Positions 2,777 through 36,114 of a DNA stretch of 39,263 nt are shown here, one piece after another (within the stretch, counting starts at the first letter, position 1; the number at the start of each line of letters is the position of its first letter). Source of the DNA: a virus (Duplodnaviria; Heunggongvirae; Uroviricota; Caudoviricetes). The notes under the pieces were generated by a model. The model saw only the letters and a program-made list of their open reading frames with translations. It did no database searches and was not told the DNA's origin. Made by a program: the position numbers and the translations under genes. Where the stretch lies: the IMG/VR virus record IMGVR_UViG_2506520037_000005, positions 1 to 39,263 of that record. One strand, written 5' to 3'.

Positions 2777-2855
2777 TTGCCTGAAATTTAAGATGTTTAA
2801 AATCATGATGTTAGAAGCACTGTTTTTTAACGATGGCGACAAAATGGCGGCAGCG

Positions 2856-3074
2856 TCAAAGAGAGAGCGCCACCTGTCCTGATTTCATTGGATGCGGCTG
2901 AACTGGATTCGACTCTTTTGGTGTTGCAATCGAACGAACAAAAGTTTCATGGGTAACAAAAGTATGGCTGCAGTTAATGTTCTGGCACTGGTTATAACGC
3001 TCTTTGGTCAATGAAGATACCTGAAAACTGCTGCGAGTATGGGCGGCACTTCCACACAGTGGGCAAATCATCAT
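2856..3074 (-). CDS. ogr: Ogr/Delta-type zinc-finger late-gene transcription activator
   Basis: 72 aa from internal ATG (MMICPLCGSAAH...CQNINC); CxxC-N-CxxxxC zinc-finger pattern and position next to D as in P2. The longer ORF-track start is probably not used. Confidence 0.8.
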   Translation of the reverse strand: MMICPLCGSAAHTRSSFQVSSLTKERYNQCQNINCSHTFVTHETFVRSIATPKESNPVQPHPMKSGQVALSL

Positions 3075-3164
3075 TTTTCGAGTTCTCCCCATTTTTGCTA
3101 AATTCACAACAATGATACCGTATTATTCCATTTTGCAAACTTAAAAGTTCTCCATTGCGAAGAA

Positions 3165-8829: not shown

Positions 8830-10002
8830 TTACGCGCTGACCTGGCTGGCGAAATTCACCAGGTACTGATCGGTGATGCGCTGGCGCAGCATCAGATTTT
8901 CAAGTGGCGGCACTGGCGTGTAGTCATAGTCGATGGTGAGTTTTCCGGCTTTCAGCGTGTCTTTGTCGTTCACCGACTCATCCAGCCAGCAATCACCACC
9001 AATGAGATAGCCCTGACTGACCAGGCTGCGCATTTTGGCGCGGATACCTTCGATAATGTCGCGGGCCAGCGACGGGTTAAGCGGTTTATCCACCGCCCAC
9101 ATGTGTGCTTCTGCCATCGTGTCCATCAGCACCTGCGCCGTGCGGGTGTAGTTTTCGAAGGCAAAGAGCGGGTCATCACTCAGGCAGCGGGAACCCCAGA
9201 AGCGGAACCCGTCTTTACGCACAAGCGTGGTGACGTCGTTCTGGTTCAGCAGACCTGCATCGGTTGCCGGGTCCTGCAGATCCCAGAACACATCTGCAGA
9301 AATTCCGGTGACACCGTTCACGCCCACGTTGGACAGGCTTTTGTGCCATCCGGTCTGCTCGTCAATTTTGGCGCGCAGACCAAGCGCACGGGCGGTGGCA
9401 TATGCCGTTGCTTCGGCATTCAGCACCGTGTCCCAGCCAGTAAAGTCAGGCCAGATCAGCATCCCTTCGCGCTGGCTGAAGTTTTCACGGTAAGTGATCG
9501 CCTCCTGTACCGTCTTGCAGCCATACGCTGACAGGTAAGCAAACCCACGCAGGCTTTGCGCCACGCTCAGCAACTCAGTAGCTACCGCCTTGGTGTCGTG
9601 GCCTGGCACGCCGAGAATGCGCGGTTTAACGCCGAGCTGTGACTGGGCAGATAACAGGGCTTTCATACCTGTTTTTTTACCTTCAGCAGTCACTGCGCCG
9701 ATGATATTGGTCGTGGTTTCGTCTTCCGTTTCACCCTGCGGCACACGCACAACAACGGTCACGGGTTTTGCCTGGTCAGCGATGGCATCCAGCGAACGGG
9801 CCAGCGTGCCGGACTCACCCGCTTTACCGCTGGCAGTCAGCACATCAGTGATCAGCACGGGTTGATTAAGAGGAAACATTTTTGCATCGGCATCATCGCC
9901 CGTGCAGACCATACCCACGATGGCGGTGCTCACCGTGGTAATGGATCGGGTGCCTTCGTTGACTTCAACAACGCGCACCCCGTGGTGGTAATCCTGAGCC
10001 AT
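8830..10002 (-). CDS. FI: Tail sheath protein FI
   Basis: 390-aa ORF; P2 gpFI size and position; first gene of the F operon. Confidence 0.85.
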
Positions 10003-10078
10003 AGTGGCGAACCTCCTGATTGGATTAGGCTTCGCCCTATGTTGAAGTGATTGTGCCTGACAAACAGCTAAGCGCAGT

Positions 10079-10096
10079 TGTACCGTTATTCACACA
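10079..10096. promoter_or_regulatory. Candidate Ogr-binding dyad (TGT-N12-ACA) of late promoter PF
   Basis: TTGTACCGTTATTCACACAAA, centred about 85 bp upstream of the FI start codon; extended similarity to the dyad in the O/P intergenic region. Confidence 0.55.
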
Positions 10097-10144
10097 AAAT
10101 GACGGTATTTGTCTACTTGCAGGGATAATCAAAATAATGCTGAT

Positions 10145-10711
10145 TCAGGGGGATTCATTACTCTTATTTGCCGGAAATTTTCTATAAATTGTGGAAACAC
10201 CCACATCAAAAATCAGTGCAATACGCTGTCTTGATTCTCCGGCCTCGAGTAAGCGTCCAATCTGTGCCCACTGTTCGGTGGTCAACTTAGGACGGCGTCC
10301 ACCTACTCTGCCTTTGGCGCGAGCTGCAGCAAGCCCCGCCCTGGTACGTTCAACTATCAGTTCGCGTTCCATTTCAGCCAGGGCACCCATGACATGAAAA
10401 AAGAAACGGCCCATTGGGGTACTGGTATCAATACTGTCAGTCAGGCTTCGGAAATTCACACCTCGCTGGCGCAACTCTTCTATCAACGTAACAAGATGCC
10501 GCATACTGCGCCCCAACCTGTCCAGCTTCCAGACAACCAAAGTGTCACCTGCCGATAATGTCCTGAGCAGTTTTTTCAGTCCCGGTCTGTCGGACTTAGT
10601 GCCACTGATTTTGTCCTCAAAAATCCGCTCACATCCCGCGCAGTTCAGCGCATTACGTTGCAAATCGGTGTTCTGGTCATTTGTTGACACGCGTACATAG
10701 CCAATAAGCAT
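10145..10711 (-). CDS. Serine DNA invertase (Gin/Hin/Pin/Cin family)
   Basis: MLIGYVRVSTNDQNTDLQRNAL... with catalytic-serine motif and C-terminal HTH; near-collinear with Mu Gin as recalled. Real start is probably the ATG giving MLIGY (188 aa). Confidence 0.9.
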   Translation of the reverse strand: MLIGYVRVSTNDQNTDLQRNALNCAGCERIFEDKISGTKSDRPGLKKLLRTLSAGDTLVVWKLDRLGRSMRHLVTLIEELRQRGVNFRSLTDSIDTSTPMGRFFFHVMGALAEMERELIVERTRAGLAAARAKGRVGGRRPKLTTEQWAQIGRLLEAGESRQRIALIFDVGVSTIYRKFPANKSNESP

Positions 10712-10766
10712 GATCAATCCCCTGAATAAAAACCGGGGATGATGCCAGTTAGCCGTTATCTCTGCA

Positions 10767-10792
10767 TTTTCATAAACGTTGGTTTGGGAGAA
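10767..10792. other. Invertase crossover site, right (26-bp imperfect palindrome, gix/hix-like)
   Basis: TTTTCATAAACG TT GGTTTGGGAGAA; its right 14 bp are identical to the inverted copy inside gene H; lies 55 bp from the invertase start. Confidence 0.75.
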
Positions 10793-11122
10793 GCCAGATA
10801 TGTCATTCAGCGAGGAGCTAATGCCAATGGTGCATGGATACGCTGGTCAGATGGTGCAATAGAAGTATTTGGAACCGGTGGATCTAATGATAATGGACTG
10901 GCTAAAGTTGTTTACCCAATTGCACTGCCTAAACTTTCACGTTTTATCAGTATCGCGGAAAGAATAAGAACGGATTACGAGAGCACACCTAATAATGTTC
11001 ACGTTTCAATGATCGTGGATGATCAGGTAACAAATACCGGCTTTTATGCCCGCTGCCAGATGTACGACGGCAGACCATCATCAAATGCTTTTTCCTGGAG
11101 GGTTTATTGTGCGCCTGTTTAA
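10781..11122 (+). CDS. Promoterless alternative tail-fibre C-terminal segment (Sv'), expressed only after inversion
   Basis: The plus-strand ORF reads GLGE... in the same frame and from the same shared 14-bp core as the H gene; inversion would fuse the H constant part to this 113-codon segment. Confidence 0.6.
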   Translation, partial: GLGEARYVIQRGANANGAWIRWSDGAIEVFGTGGSNDNGLAKVVYPIALPKLSRFISIAERIRTDYESTPNNVHVSMIVDDQVTNTGFYARCQMYDGRPSSNAFSWRVYCAPV

Positions 11123-11141
11123 TCCAGTTACTTTGTAGTGG

Positions 11142-12398
<1,257 letters not shown>

Positions 12399-12535
12399 TG
12401 AAGTAATCCCCGGTCTTCATGACGTGACCGGGGCTATTGAATTACCGGAGGACAACTGGTTTTTTACTATGACAGAAATTCCTCAGGGCATGGAGCTAAC
12501 AATTAATGAGAAAGGCGAACCAATACTAATTGAGG

Positions 12536-13141
12536 TTAATCAGTCTCAGGGAATACAGGCCAAATAATATCAGGCGCGGTGCTGGTATCTGTTGCCGTCA
12601 CCGCGTCAGTGTAATCCAGCACAGCGTTAAGCCGGGTTGTTTCTGCCTGCGTCAGTTTCCGCCCGGCCTGTAATTTCAGCTGAATCAGACTAATGGAAGC
12701 CATTGCTGCATCAATCAGTGACTGACGCTGTGCTTCTGCCGCTTCTACTGCGGCACCGTGTTGTGCCTCAGTATCCGTCACCCATTTCTCACCATCCCAT
12801 TTATCGTATGGCGTTAATGGGGCGATAGTGGTTGTATTATCAGGGTAATTACCCGGAGCTGTGATTTCTTTTGATTCTCCTGTTGCGGTGCTAAAGACGA
12901 TTTCACCGCGATGGTCTGGCACATATTCCCATGAGTTAAAATCTGCAGAACGGCAGATTGTATAACCAGCTTTGTATGCGCCTGGAGCATCTAAACAGGA
13001 ACATGCCGGAATGCCGACACCAACGGCAAGATATTCAGTCGATATGGAAATATATTCCCGTGTTTCACCATCATAATTATAGACAGTAATATTCCCCGCC
13101 TTCGTGGCAATAAACTCGCTATTTAATACAGTGCTATCCAT
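12536..13141 (-). CDS. G: Tail fibre assembly protein (gpG/Tfa)
   Basis: 201-aa ORF immediately downstream of the tail fibre gene with 1-bp overlap. Confidence 0.8.
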   Translation of the reverse strand: MDSTVLNSEFIATKAGNITVYNYDGETREYISISTEYLAVGVGIPACSCLDAPGAYKAGYTICRSADFNSWEYVPDHRGEIVFSTATGESKEITAPGNYPDNTTTIAPLTPYDKWDGEKWVTDTEAQHGAAVEAAEAQRQSLIDAAMASISLIQLKLQAGRKLTQAETTRLNAVLDYTDAVTATDTSTAPDIIWPVFPETD

Positions 13142-14655
13142 TATGCAGCCCTCACAATGTAGTTAAATGCGATGTTGCGTGGACGGACACCGAAATAAGA
13201 AGTAACACCATTCATTGTCAAATTTCCAGAGCCAAAAGCGGTAAAACCAGAACCAGCATTAACTGCCGAATCCGCGTTTCTGACAAAGTTTTTGGGAGGT
13301 GAACCGGAGACACCAGCCGAAATATCATCAGCATTACCGCCATTGCCGTGGTGGTTAGTTATCTTTGTTTCCGCCTGCGCCGTCAACAAACCTCGTCCAG
13401 AGTCAACCCCGCGCCCGTCATCCCAGCCGCGAATAAACTCACCACGTAAATCAGGCAATTTATTTGCCGGATAAGCCTTTGCCAGTTCCGGGTATTCTTC
13501 AGCAGAAAAAGCCGCGCCGTTGCATTTCAGCCAGCCTGTTGGCGGAGTGGCGGAAGGCCATGGAACAGGGACACCAACGGGTAATGCAGAGCCTTCTCCC
13601 AAACCAAGGTATGCGAGAAGACCAGCTACATCCTTTCCACTCAAATTGGTAAGCGTATTGTCCAGCGGTTGTTTACCTGCCAGCGCATTAAGCATTGTCG
13701 TGGCAAAGTTCGGATCATTCCCCAGTGCCGCCGCCAGTTCGTTCAGTGTATCCAGTGCCGCAGGTGCAGAACCCACCATTGCTGCAATCGCTGATTTCAC
13801 AAAAGCTGTAGTGGCAATCTGTGTATTGTTGACCGACTGTGCCGCAGTAGGTGCTGTTGGCGTTCCGGTGAGTGCCGGACTCGACAGCGGTGCTTTTAGT
13901 GCCAGCGCATTGTTAATGGTGGTACTGAATTTCGGGTCATTGTTAATGGCTGCGGCAATTTCTTTCAGTGTGTCCAGCGTGGCTGGCGCACCGTTAATCA
14001 GAGCAGTAATAGCGGCCTGAACAAACTCAGTGGTCGCAATCCGCGTGGTGTTATTTCCTGCTGCAGGCGTCGGCGCTTTTGGTTCTCCGGTAAATGTCGG
14101 ATTATGTTTCTGCGCATACTGGGTATGAGGATCTTGTGCGGCAATGTGGTTTCTCATCTGGTCATCCACATACAGCTTTAATTCCAGGACTTCATCATCC
14201 ACGTATTTACGGGTTGCCAGCACTACAGCAGGGTCGATTTTCAGGGTGATATTGTCCGTACTGCTGGTAATCAGCACCATGCGCACGGTCTGGGTGCGCC
14301 CGCTGCCTTCAGCCAGTTGCGGCTTATAGCTTTCCGGGCAGTTGCCCACGGCAATCAATGCCCCGGACTCATCAAACAGGCCCACTTCACGTATCCACCA
14401 ACCGCCCTCGTTTTCAGGGATCACCTGTTCAGCAATAATCTGGCTGCTGTTCTGCGGGTCGATATAAAGCATATTCAGCGCAGCCCGGCGTTTCTCATTT
14501 ACCAGTGCCGTCTGCTTTGCGTCCGGCGTTGGCAATACTCCGCCGCCATCGCCCACCGCCATATGGGTAATTTTTAGCGGCACACCGAGCGCGGCGGCGC
14601 TGGCAAGTTTCGCCGCGCCAATATCCGTCAGCAGGGTATAAAATTTTGTGCTCAT
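13141..14655 (-). CDS. H: Tail fibre protein H (constant N-terminus plus invertible variable C-terminus)
   Basis: 504-aa ORF with repeated alanine-rich motifs (AAAINNDPKF / AAALGNDPNF) and a WLKCNGAAFS...YPELAKAY fibre tip; a crossover site lies within it. Confidence 0.85.
   Translation of the reverse strand: MSTKFYTLLTDIGAAKLASAAALGVPLKITHMAVGDGGGVLPTPDAKQTALVNEKRRAALNMLYIDPQNSSQIIAEQVIPENEGGWWIREVGLFDESGALIAVGNCPESYKPQLAEGSGRTQTVRMVLITSSTDNITLKIDPAVVLATRKYVDDEVLELKLYVDDQMRNHIAAQDPHTQYAQKHNPTFTGEPKAPTPAAGNNTTRIATTEFVQAAITALINGAPATLDTLKEIAAAINNDPKFSTTINNALALKAPLSSPALTGTPTAPTAAQSVNNTQIATTAFVKSAIAAMVGSAPAALDTLNELAAALGNDPNFATTMLNALAGKQPLDNTLTNLSGKDVAGLLAYLGLGEGSALPVGVPVPWPSATPPTGWLKCNGAAFSAEEYPELAKAYPANKLPDLRGEFIRGWDDGRGVDSGRGLLTAQAETKITNHHGNGGNADDISAGVSGSPPKNFVRNADSAVNAGSGFTAFGSGNLTMNGVTSYFGVRPRNIAFNYIVRAA
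13594..13619. other. Invertase crossover site, left (inside gene H)
   Basis: TTCTCCCAAACC AA GGTATGCGAGAA, an inverted copy of the site at 10767-10792 with a matching central dinucleotide. Confidence 0.75.
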
Positions 14656-15257
14656 GGATTCACTCTCATTGTGTCAATAACATGGACCGCCCCGCCTTCA
14701 TGCGCGGTGCCACCGGAAATAATCGTTTCGTTGATATACGGATAGATCGTGATTTCTTCGCCAAGATAGCTGGCAACCCCCATCCAATGTGGGCCGCTGG
14801 TCTGCAGATTGATGGACATGCCGATCATGTGACGGCTACATGGTTTGGCATCACTTATCAGCCTCTCAAGTTCCAGATAGGTATCTTCAGTGATGCCCTG
14901 GTCCTGCACGCCGATATCCAGGCGAAACGTTCCCGGTGCTTCTCCGGTCTGCCACCATTCAATAATGCGGATCAGGAAGCCGAACGGCTCCACCACCCGC
15001 CGCACAGCACTGGTGGTTCCTTTATGCTGATGTATATAAAAAGCATCCTTCACCACCTGGCGTTTGACGCTTTCTGTCCAGCTCTCGTCCCAGCGATCCA
15101 CAGAGAACGCCCAGGCGAGATAAGGCAGGAAACTGACTGGACAGGTTGCCGGATTCCACAAGTCACGCAGCGGCACCTGCAAATCAGAAATCCCGCTGCA
15201 CGCTTGCGCCAGTCGGCGCTCCAGTGGCGTTGAACCCGGTGGCAGCAGACTATTCAT
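14652..15257 (-). CDS. I: Baseplate assembly protein I
   Basis: 201-aa ORF with P2 gpI-like sequence (RELWNP.TCP...LPYLAWAFSVDRWDE) as recalled. Confidence 0.85.
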   Translation of the reverse strand: MNSLLPPGSTPLERRLAQACSGISDLQVPLRDLWNPATCPVSFLPYLAWAFSVDRWDESWTESVKRQVVKDAFYIHQHKGTTSAVRRVVEPFGFLIRIIEWWQTGEAPGTFRLDIGVQDQGITEDTYLELERLISDAKPCSRHMIGMSINLQTSGPHWMGVASYLGEEITIYPYINETIISGGTAHEGGAVHVIDTMRVNP

Positions 15258-16158
15258 CAGTTCCCCCGTTGGTTACGCTCCACTGCGTACATGATGCCGC
15301 CTGCGTTTTGTTCAGGACCACATCCGCCAGCGGCGAAGCCAGTTCCACACGCTGCACACCTTCAACATGCAACGCGGCAAAGATGGCGCTACGGCGAATA
15401 TCCCGACCAAGCCGCGTCTGACTGGCGATGTACTTCTGCAGGCTGGCTTTTGCCGCTGCCATTACCGGCTCTGCTTCTGGTCCCGGATAGAGAAAAATGG
15501 TGGCTTCCACGCGGTACGGGATGATTTCTGCACTGCGAACCGTCAGACGGTCAGCCACCGGGCGGACGTTCTCACTGTTCAGTGCTTTCTCCACCACATC
15601 CAACAGGTCTTTTTCTGCTGTTCCGTCTCCTTCGCGGCTAAGGACAGTCAGCACCACCTCTGCAGGTGCCGGGCTGGTTGCACTGGCATCCGCCACCCGA
15701 CCGTCGGCGCTTCGGGCATGAAATTCATAAGCTGCAGTTGGCCCCGCAACTGAAAGCCCTTCAAAGGCTGCAGGCACACGCAGGCGTAACGCTTCATCAC
15801 TTTCCATCACAGCCGCAACGGGCGGCACAGCGTCATAATCAGCAGGTGTCACCGTCAGGCGTTTCACGTTGTAGTTGGCAGCGAGCTGGTCCAGATCGCT
15901 CCCTATGGCATAAGCCGCCATCACCGCCTGCGCGGCTTCGTTAATGCGCTGGCGCAGAAGCAACTCACGATAAGCGTTTTCCTGCAACAATTTGGTGACG
16001 GGTTCAGATTCCAGTTCCAGTGTGCGGCTCACTGCTTCCTGCTCATCTTTCGGATGAAGCGCCACAAATTCTGCCTTGCGTTCGGCAAGCAACGTCTCAA
16101 AGTCCGGCACATCCACAATCTGCGGCGCAGGTAACTGCGAAAGGTCAATCACTGCCAT
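15250..16158 (-). CDS. J: Baseplate assembly protein J
   Basis: About 302 aa from the internal ATG (MAVIDLSQLP...); the longer ORF-track start would overlap W. Confidence 0.85.
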   Translation of the reverse strand: MAVIDLSQLPAPQIVDVPDFETLLAERKAEFVALHPKDEQEAVSRTLELESEPVTKLLQENAYRELLLRQRINEAAQAVMAAYAIGSDLDQLAANYNVKRLTVTPADYDAVPPVAAVMESDEALRLRVPAAFEGLSVAGPTAAYEFHARSADGRVADASATSPAPAEVVLTVLSREGDGTAEKDLLDVVEKALNSENVRPVADRLTVRSAEIIPYRVEATIFLYPGPEAEPVMAAAKASLQKYIASQTRLGRDIRRSAIFAALHVEGVQRVELASPLADVVLNKTQAASCTQWSVTNGGTDE

Positions 16159-16504
16159 TCTCTGCTCCTGTTGATACGGAAAGGGAAACAGGCACACCGT
16201 TATTCCGCCGCCCGGTCAGCTCCACCACCATAGAACCGTCAAAGTTGCTGTTGATGGTGATGGAATCCAGCGTCAGCCGTGGCTCCCAGCGACTCAGCGC
16301 CACATACACTGCCGACATGACCTGCAGGCGTAATGCCGGATTTTGTGGCTGATCTATTAAAACCGACAGGAGGGAACCATATTCCCGGCGGGCAATGCGG
16401 CTACCCTGCGGTGTCAGCAGAATGTCCCGCACCGACTGGCGCAGATGATCAATATCAGTAATGACTTTGCCGCTGGTATTGTTCATCCCGCTATAAAGCG
16501 TCAT
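16145..16504 (-). CDS. W: Baseplate protein W (gp25-like)
   Basis: 119-aa ORF between V and J. Confidence 0.85.
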   Translation of the reverse strand: MTLYSGMNNTSGKVITDIDHLRQSVRDILLTPQGSRIARREYGSLLSVLIDQPQNPALRLQVMSAVYVALSRWEPRLTLDSITINSNFDGSMVVELTGRRNNGVPVSLSVSTGAENGSD

Positions 16505-17079
16505 ACCGGGCCTCCGGTTGTATCGCCGCCTTTCAGGACGCCAGTATGCTGATGCGCATCAACCACAATCCCGTTAGAACTCATCGCACCGCCGCCCTGG
16601 GTAACGCCACCATTGATCACTACTTCGCTGTTAATTCGCGTGCGGTCAGCCTCCAGCACAAACTCACTGGTTTTCATGGTGATATTGTCAGCGGCCTCAA
16701 TGACCATTGATTTGATGCCCCTTACATACCAGCGCCCGGTGGCGGGTTCGTATTCAAACCAGCTACCGTCAGGATGTTCTGTCACGCAGGCGTCCGCCGA
16801 CGTCGACGGTGGTGCGAACTGATTCGAATAGACAGCGGGCAGCGCAAAGGCAGTCTCCAGATTACCGCCCAGACTCAGCAGCACCACCTGCTCACCTTCC
16901 GATGGTCGCCACCATGTGCGGGCATTACCGGCACGCAGCGTCAGCCAACTGATCCAGTTAGTTTCAAGGTCGCCCGTTTTCACCCGGCAAAGCCAGTTCT
17001 CCCGGTCCACTTCGGTGACTACACCAGTGCGGATCAGATTGGTGATAAGGCGCATGATTTCAGTCAGTTGTGCGTTCAT
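16501..17079 (-). CDS. V: Baseplate spike protein V
   Basis: 192-aa ORF similar to P2 gpV as recalled. Confidence 0.85.
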   Translation of the reverse strand: MNAQLTEIMRLITNLIRTGVVTEVDRENWLCRVKTGDLETNWISWLTLRAGNARTWWRPSEGEQVVLLSLGGNLETAFALPAVYSNQFAPPSTSADACVTEHPDGSWFEYEPATGRWYVRGIKSMVIEAADNITMKTSEFVLEADRTRINSEVVINGGVTQGGGAMSSNGIVVDAHQHTGVLKGGDTTGGPV

Positions 17080-17125
17080 AAGTTGATTTTATTTGTACTA
17101 TTTGTATATTTATATCCACTTTCCT

Positions 17126-17143
17126 TGTGACATTAACTACACA
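17126..17143. promoter_or_regulatory. Candidate Ogr-binding dyad (TGT-N12-ACA) upstream of V
   Basis: TTGTGACATTAACTACACAAAAA, centred only 55 bp from the V start codon, so assignment to PV is uncertain. Confidence 0.4.
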
Positions 17144-17147
17144 AAAA

Positions 17148-18071
17148 ATGACAACTAACACCAATACCCCAGAAGCAGCTGAGCAAGATAATATTGTCCC
17201 CATGGATGCAATGAATGATCCCATCAATCCCCCACCTACAAAGAAGGAGAGGGATGAATACAAAAAAAAACAGCAAGAAAGAATTGGCAAATACGTCGTT
17301 GGTGGAACAGATTTGGGTGGAAACACCATAAGTAAAATTTATTCACGTGGGGATGAATATGTCATTTATGAAGTAGCCAATCTTCCGCCTCATGAGTCTA
17401 TGCTCGTGTTCATAGACTCAATCATTGAGGAGGATGACAGTAAGATTGATAGATATCATGCTTCAAAAGAGCACTTTGATGAGTTTATTTCACATTGCTA
17501 CAAATACAACTGCTCTTCTATTTATAAAAAAAGAGCAGCAACAGTTATGTCAGCAACAATACTTGGAAAAAATGATATAAACAAAAATAACTTCGCCGCA
17601 ATAAATAGAGACATTAAAAACGATTATGAAAACACAATGCTTGGAAGGAATTTATATCAATCAGGAGCCATAACTTTAGCATTGATATTCATCATCCTTG
17701 CATTGATAACATATTTGGCTAGAGATTCTAATTTCATAAAAGCTAATCACTTTATTCCAGTGGTGTTATACGCCGCTTCCTTTGCTTCCATCGGGGGGTT
17801 TATTTCTGTATCCCTAAAAATAAAAAGCCTCCATACAGACAGAGAACTAAAAAAGAAAACTTATTTCTTCTATGGTGCGGAGAGAATACTCCTTTCAATG
17901 ATGGCTGGCGTACTTGTATACTTTATGCTCAAGGGGAATATTATCTTCGGGTTTATGAATAATAGTAGTGACATCTCATTCTCCATTTATGTGATTTGTG
18001 CGCTTTCTGGATTCAGTGAAACATTGATACCGAATACATTGAGAAACCTTGAAACCAAATCCGAAATTTAA
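17148..18071 (+). CDS. Hypothetical membrane-anchored protein (soluble N-terminal region plus four predicted TM helices), opposite strand to the late genes
   Basis: AT-rich ORF inserted between V and S; own terminator downstream; possible -35/-10 (TTGATT/TATATT) upstream. Start is ambiguous between GTG 17127 and ATG 17148, and no Shine-Dalgarno is seen. Confidence 0.6.
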   Translation: MTTNTNTPEAAEQDNIVPMDAMNDPINPPPTKKERDEYKKKQQERIGKYVVGGTDLGGNTISKIYSRGDEYVIYEVANLPPHESMLVFIDSIIEEDDSKIDRYHASKEHFDEFISHCYKYNCSSIYKKRAATVMSATILGKNDINKNNFAAINRDIKNDYENTMLGRNLYQSGAITLALIFIILALITYLARDSNFIKANHFIPVVLYAASFASIGGFISVSLKIKSLHTDRELKKKTYFFYGAERILLSMMAGVLVYFMLKGNIIFGFMNNSSDISFSIYVICALSGFSETLIPNTLRNLETKSEI

Positions 18072-18080
18072 ACGCATTAA

Positions 18081-18111
18081 TTAGAGTGGCAATTATGTCA
18101 CTCTAATTTTT
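18081..18111 (+). terminator. Rho-independent terminator after the V/S-intergenic gene
   Basis: 8-bp perfect stem ttagagtg / cactctaa followed by TTTTT. Confidence 0.6.
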
Positions 18112-18126
18112 ACTAGCTTCGAAGTG

Positions 18127-18573
18127 TTAATTTGTAACGACTCTAAATATCATATCTTGAATGAGCTTAATTACTTCAGCATTTATCCCTAACAGCCGTC
18201 TCTCTGCATAGTGTACTCGCGGACCATTACGACTGACGCGATCACGCAGGCCGTAGTGATGAACACGGGCAATGCGCTGTACCTTACCTTCAAACTGCAC
18301 GCTGGCAGAATCGGCGCTGGCGGCAGTTTTCAGGTATTTTGTGGTGCGAAGCTTTGTAAACATCTGACGTTTGATGCGCCCCTTTTTACTGCGTGCTGTT
18401 ACCCTTCGCGGTTCATAGCTGCTGCCATCAGGATTACGCTGCATCCTGATGTTCTGCTGCTGTGTCCGGCGAAGTTCCTGCGCCAGCTGGCGCATCATGC
18501 TGCTTCTCGTGGCTGGTTCCAGATTCGCCAGCAAGGCACTCAGCCAGTCGTCCACCTTCTGCAGTTCAGCCAC
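18127..18573 (-). CDS. S: Tail completion protein S
   Basis: 148-aa ORF in the P2 gpS position. Confidence 0.8.
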   Translation of the reverse strand: MAELQKVDDWLSALLANLEPATRSSMMRQLAQELRRTQQQNIRMQRNPDGSSYEPRRVTARSKKGRIKRQMFTKLRTTKYLKTAASADSASVQFEGKVQRIARVHHYGLRDRVSRNGPRVHYAERRLLGINAEVIKLIQDMIFRVVTN

Positions 18574-19018
18574 GTTTCACCGTCCACATTTCTTCAGGTG
18601 CATCAGGTTCCGCTATAGCTTCAACGCTCGACACACTGCCGTCAGTGCTGACCAGCACACGCTCCGTCAGTTGCAGGTTCAGGCTGATATCACAGACATC
18701 GTTGCGCAGAATATCCACCTCAAAGGTGAATAGCTTTTCCCGTAACGCCGGGTTATTGATGGCATCGGGCTGGTTATCCCTCAGCCACAGCAAAACCGGG
18801 GCCATCAGCAGATTCTGGTCGCCGCTGAAATCCTCAATCACCGCGTTCAGTGTGTAACGGTACTCCCACGACATGGAGCTGGCCCCCGTGGCAACCAGCG
18901 AACCGTTATCCACAAACAGATGCAGTTTGTCCGGGTTATTGCGGACATAAGGCACCGCTTTATTGAGGGCGTGGCGCAGGGATTGTGGTTTGTTCACTGT
19001 TTCGCTCCTGACACGCAA
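18566..19018 (-). CDS. R: Tail completion protein R
   Basis: 150-aa ORF containing FVDNGS...YRYTLN...PVLLWLRDNQPD, as in P2 gpR as recalled. Confidence 0.8.
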   Translation of the reverse strand: MRVRSETVNKPQSLRHALNKAVPYVRNNPDKLHLFVDNGSLVATGASSMSWEYRYTLNAVIEDFSGDQNLLMAPVLLWLRDNQPDAINNPALREKLFTFEVDILRNDVCDISLNLQLTERVLVSTDGSVSSVEAIAEPDAPEEMWTVKRG

Positions 19019-19250
19019 TAATCATGTCCACTTTGTCTGCACAGACCGCCCAGGCGGCCTCCGTTTCATCCAGCAACGCGTTCAGATCACCGTTAGTGCG
19101 CGGCGTTGCCTGATCCAGCCGACACGGCGTCACTCGCGGACAACCACTGACGGTAAGCCATACCTCCGGTGAGTGCCGGACGTTTCCGCAGCCGGATAAT
19201 GTCAGCAGGCAAAGGAGTATCAGCCCAGCGGCGTAAATCCTCGTTCTCAC
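18960..19250 (-). CDS. lysC: LysC, Rz1-like outer-membrane spanin lipoprotein (starts inside lysB, extends into R)
   Basis: Signal peptide with lipobox LTLSGC; out-of-frame overlap with lysB. Confidence 0.7.
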   Translation of the reverse strand: MRTRIYAAGLILLCLLTLSGCGNVRHSPEVWLTVSGCPRVTPCRLDQATPRTNGDLNALLDETEAAWAVCADKVDMIIACQERNSEQTTIPAPRPQ

Positions 19251-19521
19251 GTTTCAGTTCCTCGATCCGGTGTTGTCGTTGTCTCAGCAGCGTGCTGGTC
19301 TGTTCTGCTTCGGCATAGAGCCGCACCTGCTCCCGGTTATTGGTTTCAGTCAGAATGGACAGGCTGATAAGCTGGCTGTTGCTCTTTGCCAGTGCCTGGC
19401 TTTTGCTCTGCAGCTCGTCTGCCTGCGTGCTGATGGTCTGGCTGGCATCAGCCAGCCGCCACGTCTGCCAGCCCAGCGCCGCCAGTAATAACGTCAGCAC
19501 AACCAGCAGCAACCGGTTCAT
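19093..19521 (-). CDS. lysB: LysB, Rz-like inner-membrane spanin
   Basis: N-terminal TM segment followed by a coiled-coil-rich periplasmic domain. Confidence 0.8.
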   Translation of the reverse strand: MNRLLLVVLTLLLAALGWQTWRLADASQTISTQADELQSKSQALAKSNSQLISLSILTETNNREQVRLYAEAEQTSTLLRQRQHRIEELKRENEDLRRWADTPLPADIIRLRKRPALTGGMAYRQWLSASDAVSAGSGNAAH

Positions 19522-19895
19522 GCTGCTACCTGTTGCGCCATCTGATTACGGGTGATCCAGAAGGCAATAACGGTCAGTAGATAAAAGACCAGGGTAATAG
19601 CCCACCCCGTCCAGGCGAGACTTACAACAATCAGCAATCGCATCACCCAACTGGTAAATACGTTTTCTTTTCGGGTAATTGTCTTCAGCAAAGATGCCCT
19701 TAACTCCTGCCAGAGCGGGCCATTCTTAATTAACGCAGCCAGTGCTACCGGAATTACCGCCCATGTCAGCAAACAGGCTACCCAAACGCCGGACGCTGCC
19801 AGTACCGGAAAAATCCCCTGCGGATACACCATTGCTGCGATTAACAGCGCCATCCATAACATCAGAAACAGTCCGCTGATTAATTTCTTTTTCAT
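19518..19895 (-). CDS. lysA: LysA lysis-timing membrane protein
   Basis: About 125 aa from internal ATG (MKKKLISGLF...) with multiple TM helices; the longer ORF-track start overlaps K. Confidence 0.7.
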   Translation of the reverse strand: MKKKLISGLFLMLWMALLIAAMVYPQGIFPVLAASGVWVACLLTWAVIPVALAALIKNGPLWQELRASLLKTITRKENVFTSWVMRLLIVVSLAWTGWAITLVFYLLTVIAFWITRNQMAQQVAA

Positions 19896-19896
19896 T

Positions 19897-20409
19897 TCAG
19901 TTTGCTCCCTGTAAACACCAGGCCATCTCCCGCGCACGGCGGTTATCCAGCCCCTGATTAAACACACCTTTTACATAAACCCAGCGCGGCAACTGTCGGC
20001 ACGCATCCGCCCAGCGCCGCTGATTGAGCAATTTCACCAGCGTGGAGCTGCAGGCATTGCCCGTTCCCACGTTGAAGGCAAATGACACCACCGCGTCATA
20101 CACCTTCTGCGGTGGCTGTTGCTTCACACACCTTTCCAGTGACCGCTCCACACGCAGCACGTTGGAGATCAGTCCTTCCGCTGCCTGTCGTTCCGTAATG
20201 GTTTTGCCTGGAATGACGCCAGATGTATTACCAATGCCGTCGGTCCAGACACCCGCGCTGCACTGATACGGCTGCAGACGACAACCTTCGTAATCGGCAA
20301 TCAGTTTCAGCCCCTCCACGGAGGTGTGAAGCTGCTGAAAACCCGGCAGCGTGGCAGCAATAGCCAGCACGGCCCCGACAAGGCAGCGTTTAACGATTGA
20401 TGGATTCAT
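19897..20409 (-). CDS. K: Endolysin K, T4-lysozyme-like with N-terminal signal-anchor-release domain
   Basis: Hydrophobic N-terminus (LVGAVLAIAATLPGF) followed by an E-x8-C-x5-T catalytic-triad pattern (YEGCRLQPYQCSAGVWT). Confidence 0.8.
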   Translation of the reverse strand: MNPSIVKRCLVGAVLAIAATLPGFQQLHTSVEGLKLIADYEGCRLQPYQCSAGVWTDGIGNTSGVIPGKTITERQAAEGLISNVLRVERSLERCVKQQPPQKVYDAVVSFAFNVGTGNACSSTLVKLLNQRRWADACRQLPRWVYVKGVFNQGLDNRRAREMAWCLQGAN

Positions 20410-20605
20410 AGTCCTCCCGCGAGATCTGCCCGTCGCGCAGAAGCTGGTAGGCTTTGTGTTTGTAGTACCAGTTGATAGCCAGCATCAGCACACCAATCAT
20501 CAGGCCGCCCAGCGTTGAGGCATCCTTGATGGACAAATCGCCCAGCCAGGCCAGCACGACGGCGATGCAATACGTGATAAAGGCGCTGATTCGCTCAAGC
20601 GTCAT
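20390..20605 (-). CDS. Y: Holin Y
   Basis: 71-aa protein with two TM segments and a charged C-terminal tail; immediately upstream of the endolysin. Confidence 0.8.
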   Translation of the reverse strand: MTLERISAFITYCIAVVLAWLGDLSIKDASTLGGLMIGVLMLAINWYYKHKAYQLLRDGQISREDYESINR

Positions 20606-20608
20606 AAT

Positions 20609-20812
20609 TCAGTCCCATAGCTGGACGGTCTGCACGGTGGCGGTGGTCGGAATGTCCGGCAGCTCCACCTGCAGCCCGTGAGGTAAAAAGGGGCCGTATT
20701 CGGCAAGCCCCGGATTTGCCTTCAGTACCTGCTCCGTGACACCCTGCGTGCGCCCGTAATGACGCCAGCAAAGCGCGTCCACCGTGTCATACTGATGCGC
20801 ACGCACTTTCAT
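20609..20812 (-). CDS. X: Tail protein X
   Basis: 67-aa ORF in the P2 gpX position. Confidence 0.8.
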   Translation of the reverse strand: MKVRAHQYDTVDALCWRHYGRTQGVTEQVLKANPGLAEYGPFLPHGLQVELPDIPTTATVQTVQLWD

Positions 20813-21276
20813 CAGATAAGCTCCACTGTGCAGTGCGGCGCATCCTGTACCCGGCTGATGGCCCAGCGGGCGTCACGCCACAAATCACCGCTGGCTTCTG
20901 CCAGTTCTTCGCCCCGCTTCACACCGGATGCCGTGGCGTCATAGTCCTGGTATCGTTCGTTGAGCATGGCGCGTGCCCAGCAGTAAACCGCGTTGAAATA
21001 GTGCTGAATGCGCTCACTTTTGCCGTCCAGCTGTTCCGCCGGAACCTCTGCCAGCGAGGCATATCCCAGCATCTGCTGACGTCTGCGAAACTCATACAGC
21101 TCTGCGTTGACCTCCGAAATTGCCGACAGGGCAACCTGCTTTAAACGCGGCTGCGTCACCGTGCCGTCAGTGCGCATCACGCTGCGAAACTCCGACAGGT
21201 CCACATCAGGCCAGAACGGCGTATTTCTGATGATTTCCGCCTGTTCCGGTGCCTGTTCTGGCGCAACAAACTTCAT
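20812..21276 (-). CDS. L: Head completion protein L
   Basis: About 155 aa from internal ATG (MKFVAPEQ...). Confidence 0.8.
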   Translation of the reverse strand: MKFVAPEQAPEQAEIIRNTPFWPDVDLSEFRSVMRTDGTVTQPRLKQVALSAISEVNAELYEFRRRQQMLGYASLAEVPAEQLDGKSERIQHYFNAVYCWARAMLNERYQDYDATASGVKRGEELAEASGDLWRDARWAISRVQDAPHCTVELI

Positions 21277-21371
21277 GCTGCTTTCTCCTGAAATAGAGGG
21301 CGGTGGACGGGATTTTGATGTGGCTATGCCTTTCGCCACCCCGTGCCGCCCGTGCGCGGGGGCACGTTCTG

Positions 21372-22022
21372 TCAGCGGCTGTCATTGCGCAGTCTGCGCT
21401 CCAGCTGCTGTTTGTCTTTTTTCACGCCACAGCGGGGATCGAGCTGTAACGCATGGTTGAGATGATTAAGGGCGGAAGCCGGATTGCTTTCACTCAGGAC
21501 AGCGCCAATCGCTTTATGCAGACGCGCCCGTGACTGGTCCGGCATATCCAGACCGTCTGTCAGCTCCAGCGTCTGCAGCAACAGATCGGCATCAAAGCCG
21601 GTAGCGGCAAGCATTGCGCTCTGCGCTGCATCTGCCATTTCCTCTGCCAGCACGGTCTGCACGTTGCGGTTACCCAGAGGCATCACCCAGCCATGACGCA
21701 GGGCATGACGCCCGATCTCCAGCGCCCCGGCATAATCTCCGGCATCAATGCGCCACAGCATCACGTACATCAGCACGTCATCCTGTTGAGCGCCTCCGGC
21801 AGCCAGGACGCCCTCCGCCCAGGCGGCATATTTCGGCAGCAGCTCCACCTTTATTTCCGCTTTTTTCACCGTGGACTGAACGCCCTTGAGACGGCGGCGG
21901 TCTTCCGCCAGCTGCAGCAGCATCAGGTCATAGCCCGACGCGTGGCGAACACTGCCGCCCTCACGGGCGGCCTGTTCAGCCTGAACGCGCAGGCGATGCT
22001 GCCGTGCGGGACTCAGGCTCAT
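21372..22022 (-). CDS. M: Terminase endonuclease (small) subunit M
   Basis: 216-aa ORF similar to P2 gpM (ELLP...GAQDD...MLWR.D.GD.AGALEI) as recalled. Confidence 0.85.
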   Translation of the reverse strand: MSLSPARQHRLRVQAEQAAREGGSVRHASGYDLMLLQLAEDRRRLKGVQSTVKKAEIKVELLPKYAAWAEGVLAAGGAQQDDVLMYVMLWRIDAGDYAGALEIGRHALRHGWVMPLGNRNVQTVLAEEMADAAQSAMLAATGFDADLLLQTLELTDGLDMPDQSRARLHKAIGAVLSESNPASALNHLNHALQLDPRCGVKKDKQQLERRLRNDSR

Positions 22023-22025
22023 GGT

Positions 22026-23084
22026 TTACGCTCCGGCTTCTGCTGCGGCGGCGCTGAAATCACCAATCTGGATGTTTTCCACCAGTGCGGCGCAGCGGTA
22101 GTCCTCAACCACATAGGCTTCATTAACGGATTCAAAGTTTTCAATCCGGTCACGTTTCGGGTTGTCGATAACTGAACGGCGGCGGGTGTCTTCCTGCCAG
22201 TAGATGGACAAGTTATCCAGACGGGTGATCAGCAGTGCATTCGGCGGGAAGAACGGCGCACGCACGGCCTGCAGGCCACCCATGCGTTTCTGACTGATGA
22301 TCATATCGGCAGCGAGTTTTTCACTGTTTTCCTGCTCTTTGTTGACCAGTGGGAAATACTTGTCAGACAACAGTTCACGACCGCAAATCACCACCAGATC
22401 GTCATCGTCCTGGTAGACCACGTCGATAAGCTCATTGACGGCATCCATCACCACGGCGTCCAGGTTGGCATATTCGCCACCTTTACCGACTTTCACCGCG
22501 CCCGGTGTGGTTTCACCGCCTGTGGTGGTGCTGCCCATGACGTGATCCGGTGCATCCTCACGGATTTTCTGCAGCCAGCCTTTGTTCACATCCTGCAGCA
22601 GCGGGTTTTCACTACGGTTGGAGGTTTTCGCACGCTTCACGCCGTTAAAGCCGATCATGATGCGGTCCAGTGCCTGACGTTTCACGATGGCGTCACGGAT
22701 ACGCACCTGGAAATCCTGAAATTTCGCCCACAGGTCCAGCTTCGCGTAGGTCAGCACCGTGTCAAAGTTGGTCTGCTCGCATTTGTATTCCACATCGACC
22801 ATCAGCGTCGGATCGACAGGTTCACGCTCTTTCGCGGTGGTATCAGTGGTTCCGGCAATGGTGCTGCCAACACCCAACCCCAGCAGCTGACCGGACTGCT
22901 CAGTCACTGGCGTGACGTTAATCAGCGTCAGGAAAGCGGCGGACTGCTGGATCTGGTCTTCCAGCGTCTGCTGTACAGACGGCTCCACGGTGAACTTGCT
23001 GGACAGTTCTTCAACTGCCACACCGTTCAGACGCGCCAGCTGCTGCAGGTAAGCGTTAAAAGCAAAGCGGGTATTCTTCTTCAT
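22026..23084 (-). CDS. N: Major capsid protein N
   Basis: 352-aa ORF near-collinear with P2 gpN as recalled. Confidence 0.9.
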   Translation of the reverse strand: MKKNTRFAFNAYLQQLARLNGVAVEELSSKFTVEPSVQQTLEDQIQQSAAFLTLINVTPVTEQSGQLLGLGVGSTIAGTTDTTAKEREPVDPTLMVDVEYKCEQTNFDTVLTYAKLDLWAKFQDFQVRIRDAIVKRQALDRIMIGFNGVKRAKTSNRSENPLLQDVNKGWLQKIREDAPDHVMGSTTTGGETTPGAVKVGKGGEYANLDAVVMDAVNELIDVVYQDDDDLVVICGRELLSDKYFPLVNKEQENSEKLAADMIISQKRMGGLQAVRAPFFPPNALLITRLDNLSIYWQEDTRRRSVIDNPKRDRIENFESVNEAYVVEDYRCAALVENIQIGDFSAAAAEAGA

Positions 23085-23100
23085 CGGGTTTTGTGCTCCA

Positions 23101-23934
23101 TCAGCAATTGGTCAGAGTGTCAGCGGGGGCGTTACCGCCTGTTGCACGCTGGCGGTAGTCCTGGCGGCTGTCTTCATGACTCAGCTTGTCCACCAGTTCG
23201 TTAAAGGCGGTTTGCTGTGCCTGCAGGGCAGTCTCCAGCTCAGACAGGCGTTCTTCCTGCTCAGACAGGGATTTTTCGGTGCGTGCGCTCAGGTTTTGCT
23301 GCTCAGTGGCGACCAGCTCCACGGCCTTATGCACATCAGAGAACCGGGCGTCATCGGACTGCTCTTTTTTGGTAAACAGCGCCGTGACGCGGGCAAACAG
23401 GGACGGTTTGTCGTCCTGGATTTCTTCCAGTTCGATCACCGTTTCCTCTGCAGCGGTAAAGAGATTGGCAGGATTCTGCTTGCGGTTTGCCAGCGGGTTA
23501 TGGGCTGCACTGGCGCTGAATGTCAGCATTTCCGTACCCAGACTGGCAGGGTCATCAGTGGCAGCCAGGCCGACCAGGTAGGCTTTGCCCGTATCAGCGA
23601 ACTTCGGGCTGACTTCCATAGAGGTGAATAATTTCTGGCCTTTTTTCACCAGTTCCACCAGGGACTCCGTTGGCTCAACGTCGGCATACAGCGCCATCTT
23701 GCCTGCCAGCGGACCTTCCGTGATTTCTTCAGCAAACAGCGCCGTCACCTTGCCGTAGCGGTTAAAGGTGCTGTCCGGCAGATAAGACTTGATGTGCTCA
23801 AGGTTAATCAGCGCGGTATACACCGCCGGGTTGTAGCTGGCTGCCATCTGTTCCAGCCATTCACGCTGGATTTCGCGTCCGTCGGTGGTGGCACCTTCCA
23901 CCCCGATGCGAAAACGCTTTGCTTTCACTGTCAT
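23101..23934 (-). CDS. O: Capsid scaffold protein O
   Basis: 277-aa ORF with P2 gpO-like motifs (FRIGVEG...INLEH...YLVGLAATDDPASLGTE) as recalled. Confidence 0.9.
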   Translation of the reverse strand: MTVKAKRFRIGVEGATTDGREIQREWLEQMAASYNPAVYTALINLEHIKSYLPDSTFNRYGKVTALFAEEITEGPLAGKMALYADVEPTESLVELVKKGQKLFTSMEVSPKFADTGKAYLVGLAATDDPASLGTEMLTFSASAAHNPLANRKQNPANLFTAAEETVIELEEIQDDKPSLFARVTALFTKKEQSDDARFSDVHKAVELVATEQQNLSARTEKSLSEQEERLSELETALQAQQTAFNELVDKLSHEDSRQDYRQRATGGNAPADTLTNC

Positions 23935-24002
23935 GAGCCGTGCTCCGTTAGAAAAAACTTACTGGAGCCTTATGGTTGCGGTGATGGGGGCAGTGAAACA
24001 AT

Positions 24003-24020
24003 GCGCGGTATTTGTACCGA
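24003..24020. promoter_or_regulatory. Candidate Ogr-binding dyad (TGT-N12-ACA) in the divergent O/P late-promoter region
   Basis: TTTGTACCGACAACCACACAAACC in the 142-bp gap between the divergent O and P genes; the only such dyad in that gap. Confidence 0.55.
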
Positions 24021-24076
24021 CAACCACACAAACCGCAGGCGGGGAAAGCCTTCATTCAAGGCTGTAGGTTTGTGCC

Positions 24077-25843
24077 ATGAACACCACACTGACACCCGCA
24101 GATCTCGATCCCCGTCGGCAGGCCATGCTGCTGTACTTTCAGGGATACCGCGTAGCCCGCATTGCTGAAATGCTGGGCGAGAAAGTTGCAACCGTTCACA
24201 GCTGGAAAAAACGCGACAAGTGGGGTGACTATGGGCCGCTGGATCAGATGCAGCTCACCACCGCCGCACGCTACTGCCAGCTCATTATGAAGGAGCACAA
24301 AGAAGGGAAAGATTTCAAAGAGATTGACCTGCTGGCGCGCCAGTCGGAGCGCCATGCGCGGATCGGCAAGTTTAACAATGGCGGCAACGAAGCCGACTTA
24401 AACCCTAACGTCGCCAACCGCAACAAAGGCCCGCGCCGTCAGCCGGAAAAGAACGTTTTCACCGATGAACAGATTGAGAAGCTGGAAGAAATCTTCCATT
24501 CCTCCATGTTCAACTACCAGCGCCACTGGTGGGAAGCCGGAAAAACCAACCGCATCCGCAACCTGCTGAAGTCACGCCAGATCGGCGCGACCTTCTATTT
24601 TGCCCGTGAAGCCCTGATTGACGCCCTGCTAACCGGGCGTAACCAGATTTTCCTTTCCGCCAGCAAGGCACAGGCCCACGTCTTTAAGCAGTACATCATC
24701 GACTTCGCCAAAGAAGTGGAGGTGGAGCTGAAAGGCGATCCGATGGTGCTTCCTAACGGGGCCACGCTGTACTTCCTCGGCACCAATGCCCGCACGGCCC
24801 AGAGTTACCACGGCAACCTGTATCTGGATGAATATTTCTGGATACCGAAATTCCAGGAGCTGCGCAAAGTGGCTTCCGGTATGGCTATTCACAAGAAATG
24901 GCGACAGACCTATTTTTCCACGCCATCCAGTCTGACACACAGTGCTTATCCGTTCTGGTCCGGTGCGCTGTTCAACCGTGGGCGCAACAGAGCCGATAAG
25001 GTGGACATCGACCTGTCCCACAGCAATCTGGCCCCCGGCCTGCTGTGCGCAGACGGGCAATACCGCCAGATAGTCACCGTGGAAGATGCGGTGCGCGGCG
25101 GCTGTAACCTGTTCGACCTTGACCAGTTGCGCATGGAGTACAGCCCTGACGAATACCAGAACTTGCTGATGTGCGAGTTCGTGGACGATCTCGCGTCCGT
25201 GTTCCCGCTCAGCGAATTGCAGGCGTGCATGGTGGACAGCTGGGAAGTCTGGACCGACTTTCATGCACTGGCCCTGCGCCCGTTTGGCTGGCGCGAAGTG
25301 TGGATCGGTTATGACCCGGCAAAAGGTACGCAGAACGGCGACAGCGCCGGATGCGTGGTGGTGGCACCGCCAGCCGTGCCAGGCGGTAAGTTCCGCATTC
25401 TTGAGCGTCACCAGTGGCGCGGAATGGACTTTCGCGCCCAGGCTGACGCCATCAAAAAACTGACCGAACAGTACAACGTGACCTATATCGGCATCGACTC
25501 AACCGGCGTTGGTCACGGGGTTTACGAGAACGTGAAAGCGTTTTTTCCTGCCGTCCGGGAGTTTGTCTACAACCCCAACGTTAAAAACGCCCTGGTACTC
25601 AAGGCCTACGACATTATCAGCCACCGCCGTCTTGAGTTTGACGCCGGGCACACCGACATTGCGCAGTCATTCATGGCAATCCGTCGCGCCACCACCGCCA
25701 GCGGCAACCGCCCGACCTATGAAGCCAGCCGCAGCGAAGAAGCCAGCCATGCCGATCTGGCCTGGGCAACAATGCACGCACTGTTTAACGAACCACTGCA
25801 GGGCGAGTCCGCCAATACCAGCAATATTGTGGAGATTTTTTGA
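24077..25843 (+). CDS. P: Terminase ATPase (large) subunit P
   Basis: 588-aa ORF divergent from O; P2 gpP size and position. Confidence 0.9.
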   Translation: MNTTLTPADLDPRRQAMLLYFQGYRVARIAEMLGEKVATVHSWKKRDKWGDYGPLDQMQLTTAARYCQLIMKEHKEGKDFKEIDLLARQSERHARIGKFNNGGNEADLNPNVANRNKGPRRQPEKNVFTDEQIEKLEEIFHSSMFNYQRHWWEAGKTNRIRNLLKSRQIGATFYFAREALIDALLTGRNQIFLSASKAQAHVFKQYIIDFAKEVEVELKGDPMVLPNGATLYFLGTNARTAQSYHGNLYLDEYFWIPKFQELRKVASGMAIHKKWRQTYFSTPSSLTHSAYPFWSGALFNRGRNRADKVDIDLSHSNLAPGLLCADGQYRQIVTVEDAVRGGCNLFDLDQLRMEYSPDEYQNLLMCEFVDDLASVFPLSELQACMVDSWEVWTDFHALALRPFGWREVWIGYDPAKGTQNGDSAGCVVVAPPAVPGGKFRILERHQWRGMDFRAQADAIKKLTEQYNVTYIGIDSTGVGHGVYENVKAFFPAVREFVYNPNVKNALVLKAYDIISHRRLEFDAGHTDIAQSFMAIRRATTASGNRPTYEASRSEEASHADLAWATMHALFNEPLQGESANTSNIVEIF

Positions 25844-36088: not shown

Positions 36089-36114
36089 GCAATTTAGATT
36101 GTTTTGGAGGACTC

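Follow-up and report, generated by a model that had tools for sequence, protein, structure and literature searches.

The late genes of the P2-like prophage carried by IMG/VR record IMGVR_UViG_2506520037_000005 raise the question of how they are switched on, and three short inverted repeats of the form TGT-N12-ACA, lying upstream of the FI and V homologues and in the gap between O and P, suggest an answer. The record is considered here from position 1 to 39,263 as a single 39,263-bp stretch, which we call the window. In P2, 186 and P4 an activator bound to such a dyad acts by way of the C-terminal domain of the polymerase alpha subunit, and so activates sigma-70 RNA polymerase at promoters without a -35 element; late transcription of the P2 type needs both the activator and this domain, and is blocked by rpoA109. 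The TGT-N12-ACA consensus, the four late operons and the zinc motif of the activator are given in PMC3931495. An earlier, sequence-only reading of the window proposed that the dyads mark Ogr-dependent late promoters, and what this leads one to expect of the sequence is found in their placement, in the presence of an ogr gene, in the alignment with P2 sites and in conservation among relatives. We consider it very likely, with a probability of roughly 0.9, that the three dyads are the activator sites of four late promoters, namely P_F, P_V and the divergent pair P_O and P_P. What is observed directly is the set of sites with its geometry and conservation, the homology of these sites to ones annotated in P2, and an ogr gene in the prophage.

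The gene order is of the P2 type, with FI (8830–10002, ATG at 10002), V (16501–17079, ATG at 17079) and O (23101–23934, ATG at 23934) on the minus strand, and P (24077–25843, ATG at 24077) and Q on the plus strand, transcribed rightwards. The dyad upstream of FI is at 10079–10096 (TGTACCGTTATTCACACA), that upstream of V at 17126–17143 (TGTGACATTAACTACACA), and that in the O/P gap at 24013–24030 (TGTACCGACAACCACACA); all three are perfect and intergenic, and between them they stand in front of the four late morphogenetic operons (P–Q, O–S, V–G and FI–D). The sequence-only reading gave the first two positions exactly, but placed the third at 24003–24020, where there is no dyad, an error of 10 nt. 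It also put the chance expectation for the bare motif in the window at about ten, which agrees with dinucleotide-preserving shuffles (10.26 +/- 3.04); eight perfect copies are present, and the bare motif is thus not enriched. Counting all dyads and comparing their flanks, as that reading had suggested, shows that only three of the eight have the extended form that it described. The pattern TTGTR-N8-CACACAAA is matched exactly at 10078–10098 and 24012–24032, and with one mismatch at the V site (17125–17145, TACACAAA), the next closest match in the window having two. With up to one mismatch allowed there are three sites compared to 0.16 expected, and none of 100 shuffles reaches three. Because this pattern was derived from the sites themselves, the symmetric form TTGTR-N11-ACAA seen in the relatives was also applied; it is matched in the window by the same three sites only, each on both strands, giving 6 hits compared to 1.19 expected.

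Conservation was followed in relatives from IMG/VR, with 80 loci each around the O, V and FI homologues. A perfect dyad is preserved at an unchanging distance in all 108 unique upstream variants (23 for V, 65 for FI and 20 for O), with the spacers and flanks replaced, where chance would supply about 0.03 perfect dyads per 140 nt. First, the V relatives have coding sequences that are 97–100% identical and upstream DNA in at least 10 unrelated classes, and each of the 23 variants has exactly one perfect dyad in 140 nt, located 45–48 nt from the V ATG. Secondly, the 65 FI variants all have the dyad 69–76 nt from the ATG; when 21 FI promoters with less than 80% identity between any two are aligned by MAFFT, the columns that are invariant or at least 80% conserved are TTGT, ACA, the -10 element AACAT(A), GGAG, the ATG and a TGc in the -35 region, with TTGT and ACA invariant and AACAT nearly so. 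Thirdly, the 20 O variants, from 80 close relatives, differ in the N12 spacer and in the flanks, and never in TGT or ACA. Over all sites TGT is always preceded by T and, with one exception, followed by a purine, and the refined consensus is TTGTR(Y)(C)A...ACA(A/T). The divergent FI promoters also share an (A)CGTGC or AGCTGT block 11–16 nt past the dyad, within the -35 region (equivalent to about 10060–10068 in the window), which may be an extra contact for the polymerase or the activator.

A weight matrix of 28 columns was built from 48 FI and V sites, each with more than 6 of its 28 positions different from those of any window site, and was used to scan both strands of the window, with 200 first-order Markov random sequences (matched in dinucleotide frequency) as the null. 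The three sites are ranked first to third, with scores of 19.9 (FI), 17.6 (O/P) and 17.4 (V), compared to a null maximum of 11.8 +/- 3.1. Equally good dyads inside coding regions, which were recognised from the outset as damaging to the proposal, are not seen, the further matches being at null level only. One of these is a fourth perfect dyad, overlooked by the sequence-only reading, which spans the P start codon at 24071–24088 (TGTGCC ATG AAC ACC ACA). It scores 10.4, its dyad is gone in a Dagavirus locus (L243), its TGT half (on the plus strand of the window) is broken in 1 of 80 close relatives, and we judge it to be a chance look-alike that is probably a by-product of threonine codons. A match inside gene D (3341–3368, minus strand) scores 12.4, close to the average null maximum, and a sequence with two mismatches to TTGTR-N8-CACACAAA at 10189–10209, inside an invertase gene, is not among the top weight-matrix hits; both were rejected.

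A candidate activator is encoded in the same prophage. The ogr gene (2856–3074, minus strand), downstream of gene D, encodes a 72-residue protein with an intact CX2CX22CX4C zinc-finger motif. The product matches the Pfam family Ogr_Delta (PF04606) with E = 6.7e-22 and 77.6 bits, well over the cutoff of 26.3, belongs to PHROG 603 (transcriptional regulator), and is named 'ogr/Delta-like zinc finger family protein' in RefSeq; it is 51% identical to P2 Ogr across all 72 amino acids.

The arrangement around the dyads closely parallels that annotated in P2, for which site and start coordinates were taken from the GenBank feature table. There, pF has its activator site at 17555–17583 and its transcription start at 17626–17628; pV has its site at 10239–10266 and its start at 10308, the first base of the V coding sequence; and pO and pP share one activator site at 3057–3087, with starts at 3127 (O) and 3016 (P). 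The annotated P2 starts are 55–58 bp from the centers of the activator sites and 47–50 nt past the dyad (47 for P_O), with -10-like hexamers at the same offset as in the window. We aligned the O/P intergenic regions of the window, a Dagavirus, a Yersinia P2-like phage, phage EtG and P2 (alignment A1). In it the dyads line up in a single block of columns, a second block holds the P-side -10 sequences GTAGGTT (window), GTATGTT and GTAGCCT (P2), and the window dyad and both of its -10 elements fall on annotated P2 features. Because one dyad is common to the divergent P_O and P_P promoters, three dyads are the full set for four late operons.

Transferring the P2 spacing onto the window dyads gives predicted transcription starts for all four promoters. 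A hexamer of the form xAxxxT occurs 35–40 nt past the last base of the dyad at P_F, P_V and P_P, and 36–41 nt past it at P_O. For P_F, where TTGTR..YACAA spans 10078–10097 and the dyad center is 85.5 nt upstream of the FI ATG, the predicted -10 is CAACAT (10039–10044, minus strand; gene-strand sequence) and transcription would start at about 10032, giving a leader of about 30 nt with the ribosome-binding sequence AGGAGG at about 10012–10017. From the center of the shared O/P dyad it is 87.5 nt to the O ATG and 55.5 nt to the P ATG. On the O side the predicted -10 is AACCAT (23972–23977, minus strand; gene-strand sequence) with a start predicted at about 23966 and a leader of about 30 nt containing the ribosome-binding sequence GGAG. 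On the P side the predicted -10 is TAGGTT (24065–24070, plus strand), and the A of the P ATG is 6 nt further on. For P_V the dyad edge is 46 nt from the V ATG, the predicted -10 is TAAAAT (17086–17091, minus strand), and the predicted start is the A of the V ATG itself.

These features suggest that, after replication starts, Ogr would bind as a zinc-finger activator to each TTGTR-N10-YACAA dyad, centered about 55 bp upstream of the transcription start, and would, by way of the alpha C-terminal domain, bring sigma-70 RNA polymerase to promoters with a -10-like hexamer but no usable -35. The P_F and P_O transcripts would have leaders with ribosome-binding sequences, and those from P_V, and probably from P_P in this lineage, would begin on the A of the start codon and be leaderless. 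The binding of Ogr, its contact with the alpha subunit and the exact starts are what we infer from knowledge of P2.

Several points weigh against this interpretation and temper it. Every functional step is transferred from P2, 186 and P4, and the coordinates used in the P2 comparison come from a GenBank feature table. Taken singly, none of the three weight-matrix scores goes beyond the extreme tail of the null, in which the highest of 200 values is 22.1; the argument rests on the three sites together with their placement and conservation. P2's own sites are imperfect, with a TGG/CCA half or, at pV, an N11 spacer, so that a perfect TGT-N12-ACA is neither necessary for function nor a guarantee of it. 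Finally, the leaderless P transcript proposed for this lineage is drawn from sequence comparison.

The case for a leaderless transcript is strongest at V. The sequence-only reading called the V site unusually close to the start codon; a distance of 45–48 nt, found in 23 of 23 variants, is instead the norm of the family, and it is unremarkable because the annotated V start of P2 is the V ATG. When the 20 nt before the ATG are scored against the 3′ end of 16S rRNA, a ribosome-binding sequence is missing upstream of V in 12 of 13 variants; the mean pairing energy is -1.9 kcal/mol with 1 of 13 variants at or below -6, compared to a mean of -7.2 with 14 of 16 variants at or below -6 for FI. Codons 1–8 of V vary only synonymously among relatives (leucine codon 5, for example, is TTA, CTG or CTA), and are therefore translated. 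Because the P2 start is at the V ATG, the pairing with 16S rRNA is weak and the first codons are translated, a leaderless V mRNA, predicted to begin with the first base of the V start codon (17079), is the best reading of this promoter. P2 gene V is a recognised leaderless mRNA, although our literature search retrieved no source for this, and the arrangement resembles other leaderless phage mRNAs, such as that of lambda cI from P_RM, in having the start codon at the predicted transcription start and no ribosome-binding sequence.

The P promoter of the window has the same geometry. The spacing of 46 nt from dyad to ATG is that of V, and the A of the P ATG aligns with the annotated P start of P2. 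The dyad center is 78.5 nt from the P ATG in P2 and EtG (an Eganvirus, 186-like, with the O/P layout of P2), and 55.5–56.5 nt from it in the window, the Dagavirus and the Yersinia P2-like phage. A 23-nt block containing the P leader and GAGG is, in alignment A1, present only in P2 and EtG and absent from three genera, including that of the window; the window P differs from its P2 counterpart in having neither the leader nor its ribosome-binding sequence, and a ribosome-binding sequence before P is not conserved. The P ATG at 24077 is also the start chosen in the NCBI automatic annotation of E. coli W. Because of the V-like spacing, the aligned -10 and the missing leader, we regard a leaderless P mRNA in this lineage, predicted to begin with the first base of the P start codon (24077), as fairly probable. 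It appears to be derived in the lineage of the window, and to our knowledge has not been described.

Alternatively, the dyads could be Ogr sites and yet P, and also V, not be leaderless, with transcription starting further upstream, from a promoter in a different phase, or translation starting downstream. The starts given here are predictions, codon 9 of V is another in-frame ATG, and the AGG that precedes the P ATG at -11 to -9 might, if transcribed, be a weak ribosome-binding sequence. However, this AGG belongs to the -10 element, is not conserved in two of the compared loci (L243 and L244), and the -10 as a whole (TAGGTT) aligns with TAGCCT of P2, 6 nt before the ATG. A downstream P start is ruled out by the conservation of residues 11–16 (DPRRQA), which are shared with P2 and lie upstream of the next methionine; the Terminase_5 domain begins at residue 11. 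For V, the exclusively synonymous variation in the first eight codons and the annotated P2 start both argue for the ATG at 17079. We think starts of this other kind unlikely, though this is the most probable of the alternatives considered here.

The region to the right of the V dyad is variable, and has to be considered in interpreting the dyad itself. A low-GC cargo gene (17148–18071, plus strand) is divergent from V and encodes a 307-residue orphan protein whose C-terminal part is hydrophobic and probably forms several membrane helices. No match to the protein was found in Pfam, PADLOC, PHROGs or NCBIfam, nor by tblastn in 50,697 phage records. Its ATG at 17148 lies 4 nt past the end of the dyad, which thus directly abuts the inserted gene, as the sequence-only reading had observed. 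The 1.4-kb segment 16900–18300, from the 3′ end of S through the cargo gene to the 5′ end of V, is covered to ≥80% in 11 of 5,426 complete E. coli genomes. Near-identical phages (loci L083–L162; equivalent to 17080–18126 in the window) have at least 9 unrelated low-GC (30–37%) genes at this position, and the S/V junction is a cargo hotspot. All of these genes are divergent from V with start codons 4–47 nt from the P_V dyad, and one further long open reading frame call overlaps the dyad. In the cargo-free form (the L150 type, 43 of 80 loci) V follows directly after S and the dyad is still at 46 nt. The 46-nt core between the dyad and the V ATG differs between classes, as does the dyad spacer; an exchanged module thus arrives with a complete P_V of its own, and homology resumes at the V start codon. 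A divergent gene abutting the V site is also found in P2, where orf30, which is non-essential, has the same arrangement and starts 15 bp from the pV site.

The proximity of the dyad to the inserted gene, and the ending of at least 9 unrelated cargo genes within 4–47 nt of it, could be taken to mean that it is primarily an insertion junction or recombination target and not a promoter element. Against this, the cargo-free type retains the dyad at the same 46 nt, the exchanged unit varies in both spacer and core and reaches as far as the V ATG with a complete promoter included, and dyads of the same form occur at F and O/P, where there is no cargo junction. The pattern is better explained by homologous exchange through S and V than by insertion of a site-specific kind at the dyad, and we consider a primary role as a junction very improbable.

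We also considered how the cargo gene might be transcribed. A divergent Ogr-activated promoter, by analogy with P_O and P_P, is rejected as a general rule; cargo start codons are 4–47 nt from the dyad across modules, and the window has no -10 at the required place (about 17178–17183). A sigma-70-like candidate, TTGATT-16-TATATT (17083–17110, plus strand; 9/12 match), overlaps the P_V -10. Matches of 9/12 are no commoner in the sequence than in shuffles (3 compared to 4.3 expected) and recur only loosely in other modules, and a cargo promoter of this type overlapping P_V is speculative. If it were real, the dyad would lie in the 5′ leader of the cargo gene, and late activation of V by Ogr would therefore shut off a cargo gene expressed in the lysogen. 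A joint reading, in which the terminase operon P–Q lost the 23-nt leader in the lineage of the window, the Dagavirus and the Yersinia P2-like phage and so acquired a leaderless Ogr-dependent transcript like that of V, and in which the P_V dyad is in addition a two-way switch at the S/V hotspot, is doubtful as a whole, and we offer it tentatively.

Returning to the three dyads as activator sites, a different protein could in principle occupy them, the most plausible being CRP or another host regulator. The V site begins with TGTGA, and TGTGA-N6-CTACA matches 8 of 10 CRP core positions. CRP at class I promoters is also similar in that a symmetric site lies upstream of a weak promoter and acts from about -61 by way of the alpha C-terminal domain. 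It differs in being another protein, in depending on cyclic AMP, and in having a TGT-N10-ACA core, whereas all three window sites have N12; moreover, the F site, the O/P site and the V sites of relatives (e.g. TGTATCAGCACTGATACA) have no TGTGA/TCACA halves at CRP spacing. A role for CRP is excluded by this spacing and by the lack of conservation of the CRP halves, and since the sites also co-occur with ogr and match the annotated activator sites of P2, host regulators in general are a most improbable explanation. Weakest of all is the view that the dyads are functionless chance occurrences of TGT-N12-ACA, which the count of the bare motif (8 compared to 10.3 expected) and the null-level matches at 24071–24088 and in gene D would allow, but which is effectively refuted by the retention of a perfect dyad in 108 of 108 variants with otherwise unrelated surrounding DNA, and by the restriction of the extended motif to three intergenic sites upstream of late operons.

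The three dyads thus correspond to the P2 late-control sites in most respects. The operons and positions are the same, P_O and P_P share a site, a -10-like hexamer follows 35–40 nt after the dyad, the dyad is centered some 55 bp from the predicted start, the predicted V start falls on the V ATG, and ogr is downstream of D. There are also differences. The window dyads are all perfect TGT-N12-ACA and are nearer to the family consensus than P2's own, which have TGT...CCA at pF and at pO/pP and the N11 spacer at pV; the promoter DNA can be aligned with P2 in short blocks only, and Ogr identity is just 51%. The same TGT-N12-ACA element is used by 186 B, P4 and phiR73 delta, PSP3 Pag and Serratia NucC, all of the same CX2CX22CX4C family. 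The P_sid and P_LL promoters of P4 reportedly carry extra delta sites, and no second conserved site was found in the window. Putative late promoters were predicted on similar grounds in Smp131, a P2-like phage of Stenotrophomonas, from TGT-N12-ACA-like sites located before late operons, one position being read both ways for PP' and PO', together with an Ogr-like protein (PMC3931495). Smp131 is from a distant host and has gene rearrangements; the window is much closer to P2, and its sites are backed by conservation in relatives.

The left 2.8 kb of the window are E. coli chromosome (grxA, ybjM, ybjL and RybB) and the remainder is the prophage. The small RNA RybB is at 2700–2778 (plus strand; Rfam, 105 bits), just beyond the ogr end, and the rybB attachment site is the seat of the prophage. 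The window is identical to E. coli W (NC_017664) except for one inverted 2.8-kb tail-fibre segment. Its prophage, which appears as 'Rybb*W (P2)' in the genome paper of that strain (PMC3032704), shares about 96% identity with Escherichia phage 500465-1 (Wadgaonvirus) and with Klebsiella prophages. In E. coli B the same site is occupied by a related P2-type prophage, Rybb*B, with retron Ec86. The segment inverted relative to NC_017664 is at 10776–13607 (breakpoints at 10776–10793 and 13593–13607) and is adjoined by a serine invertase gene (10145–10717, minus strand); it is therefore an invertible host-range segment that was flipped between the assemblies. Within it is an IS3-family element (11119–12406) with imperfect terminal inverted repeats, containing orfA (12008–12355) and orfB (11142–11888), both on the minus strand, and Rfam labels a stretch of it (12201–12323, minus strand) 'isrC' with 150 bits. 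Between genes A and Q, in the position that is the counterpart of P2 old/tin, a gene at 26909–28690 (minus strand) encodes a protein with a GmrSD N-terminal domain that is NsnA-like in PADLOC (8e-31). The old/tin position is a known defence hotspot of P2-like phages (PMC13586616). A KAP-family P-loop NTPase gene (36679–38130, plus strand), matching the PADLOC candidate system PDC-S20 (4e-82), sits between those for a CI-type repressor (36028–36678) and the integrase (38211–39263).

The late-control sites of this prophage are an orthologous instance of a well-known system, and the accepted model of P2 late control is unchanged. Mildly new are the leaderless P transcript that we infer for this lineage, and a V promoter that travels together with cargo modules. 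For annotation, the analysis fixes the late regulatory sites and likely starts of the rybB-site prophage of the industrial strain E. coli W, with three sites and not four being the full complement for four late operons. In addition, conservation refines the activator site, and the V promoter moves with each swapped cargo module, in a divergent abutting layout that P2 orf30 shares with at least 9 unrelated cargo genes; the promoter geometry would imply leaderless transcripts for V and, in this prophage, also for P.

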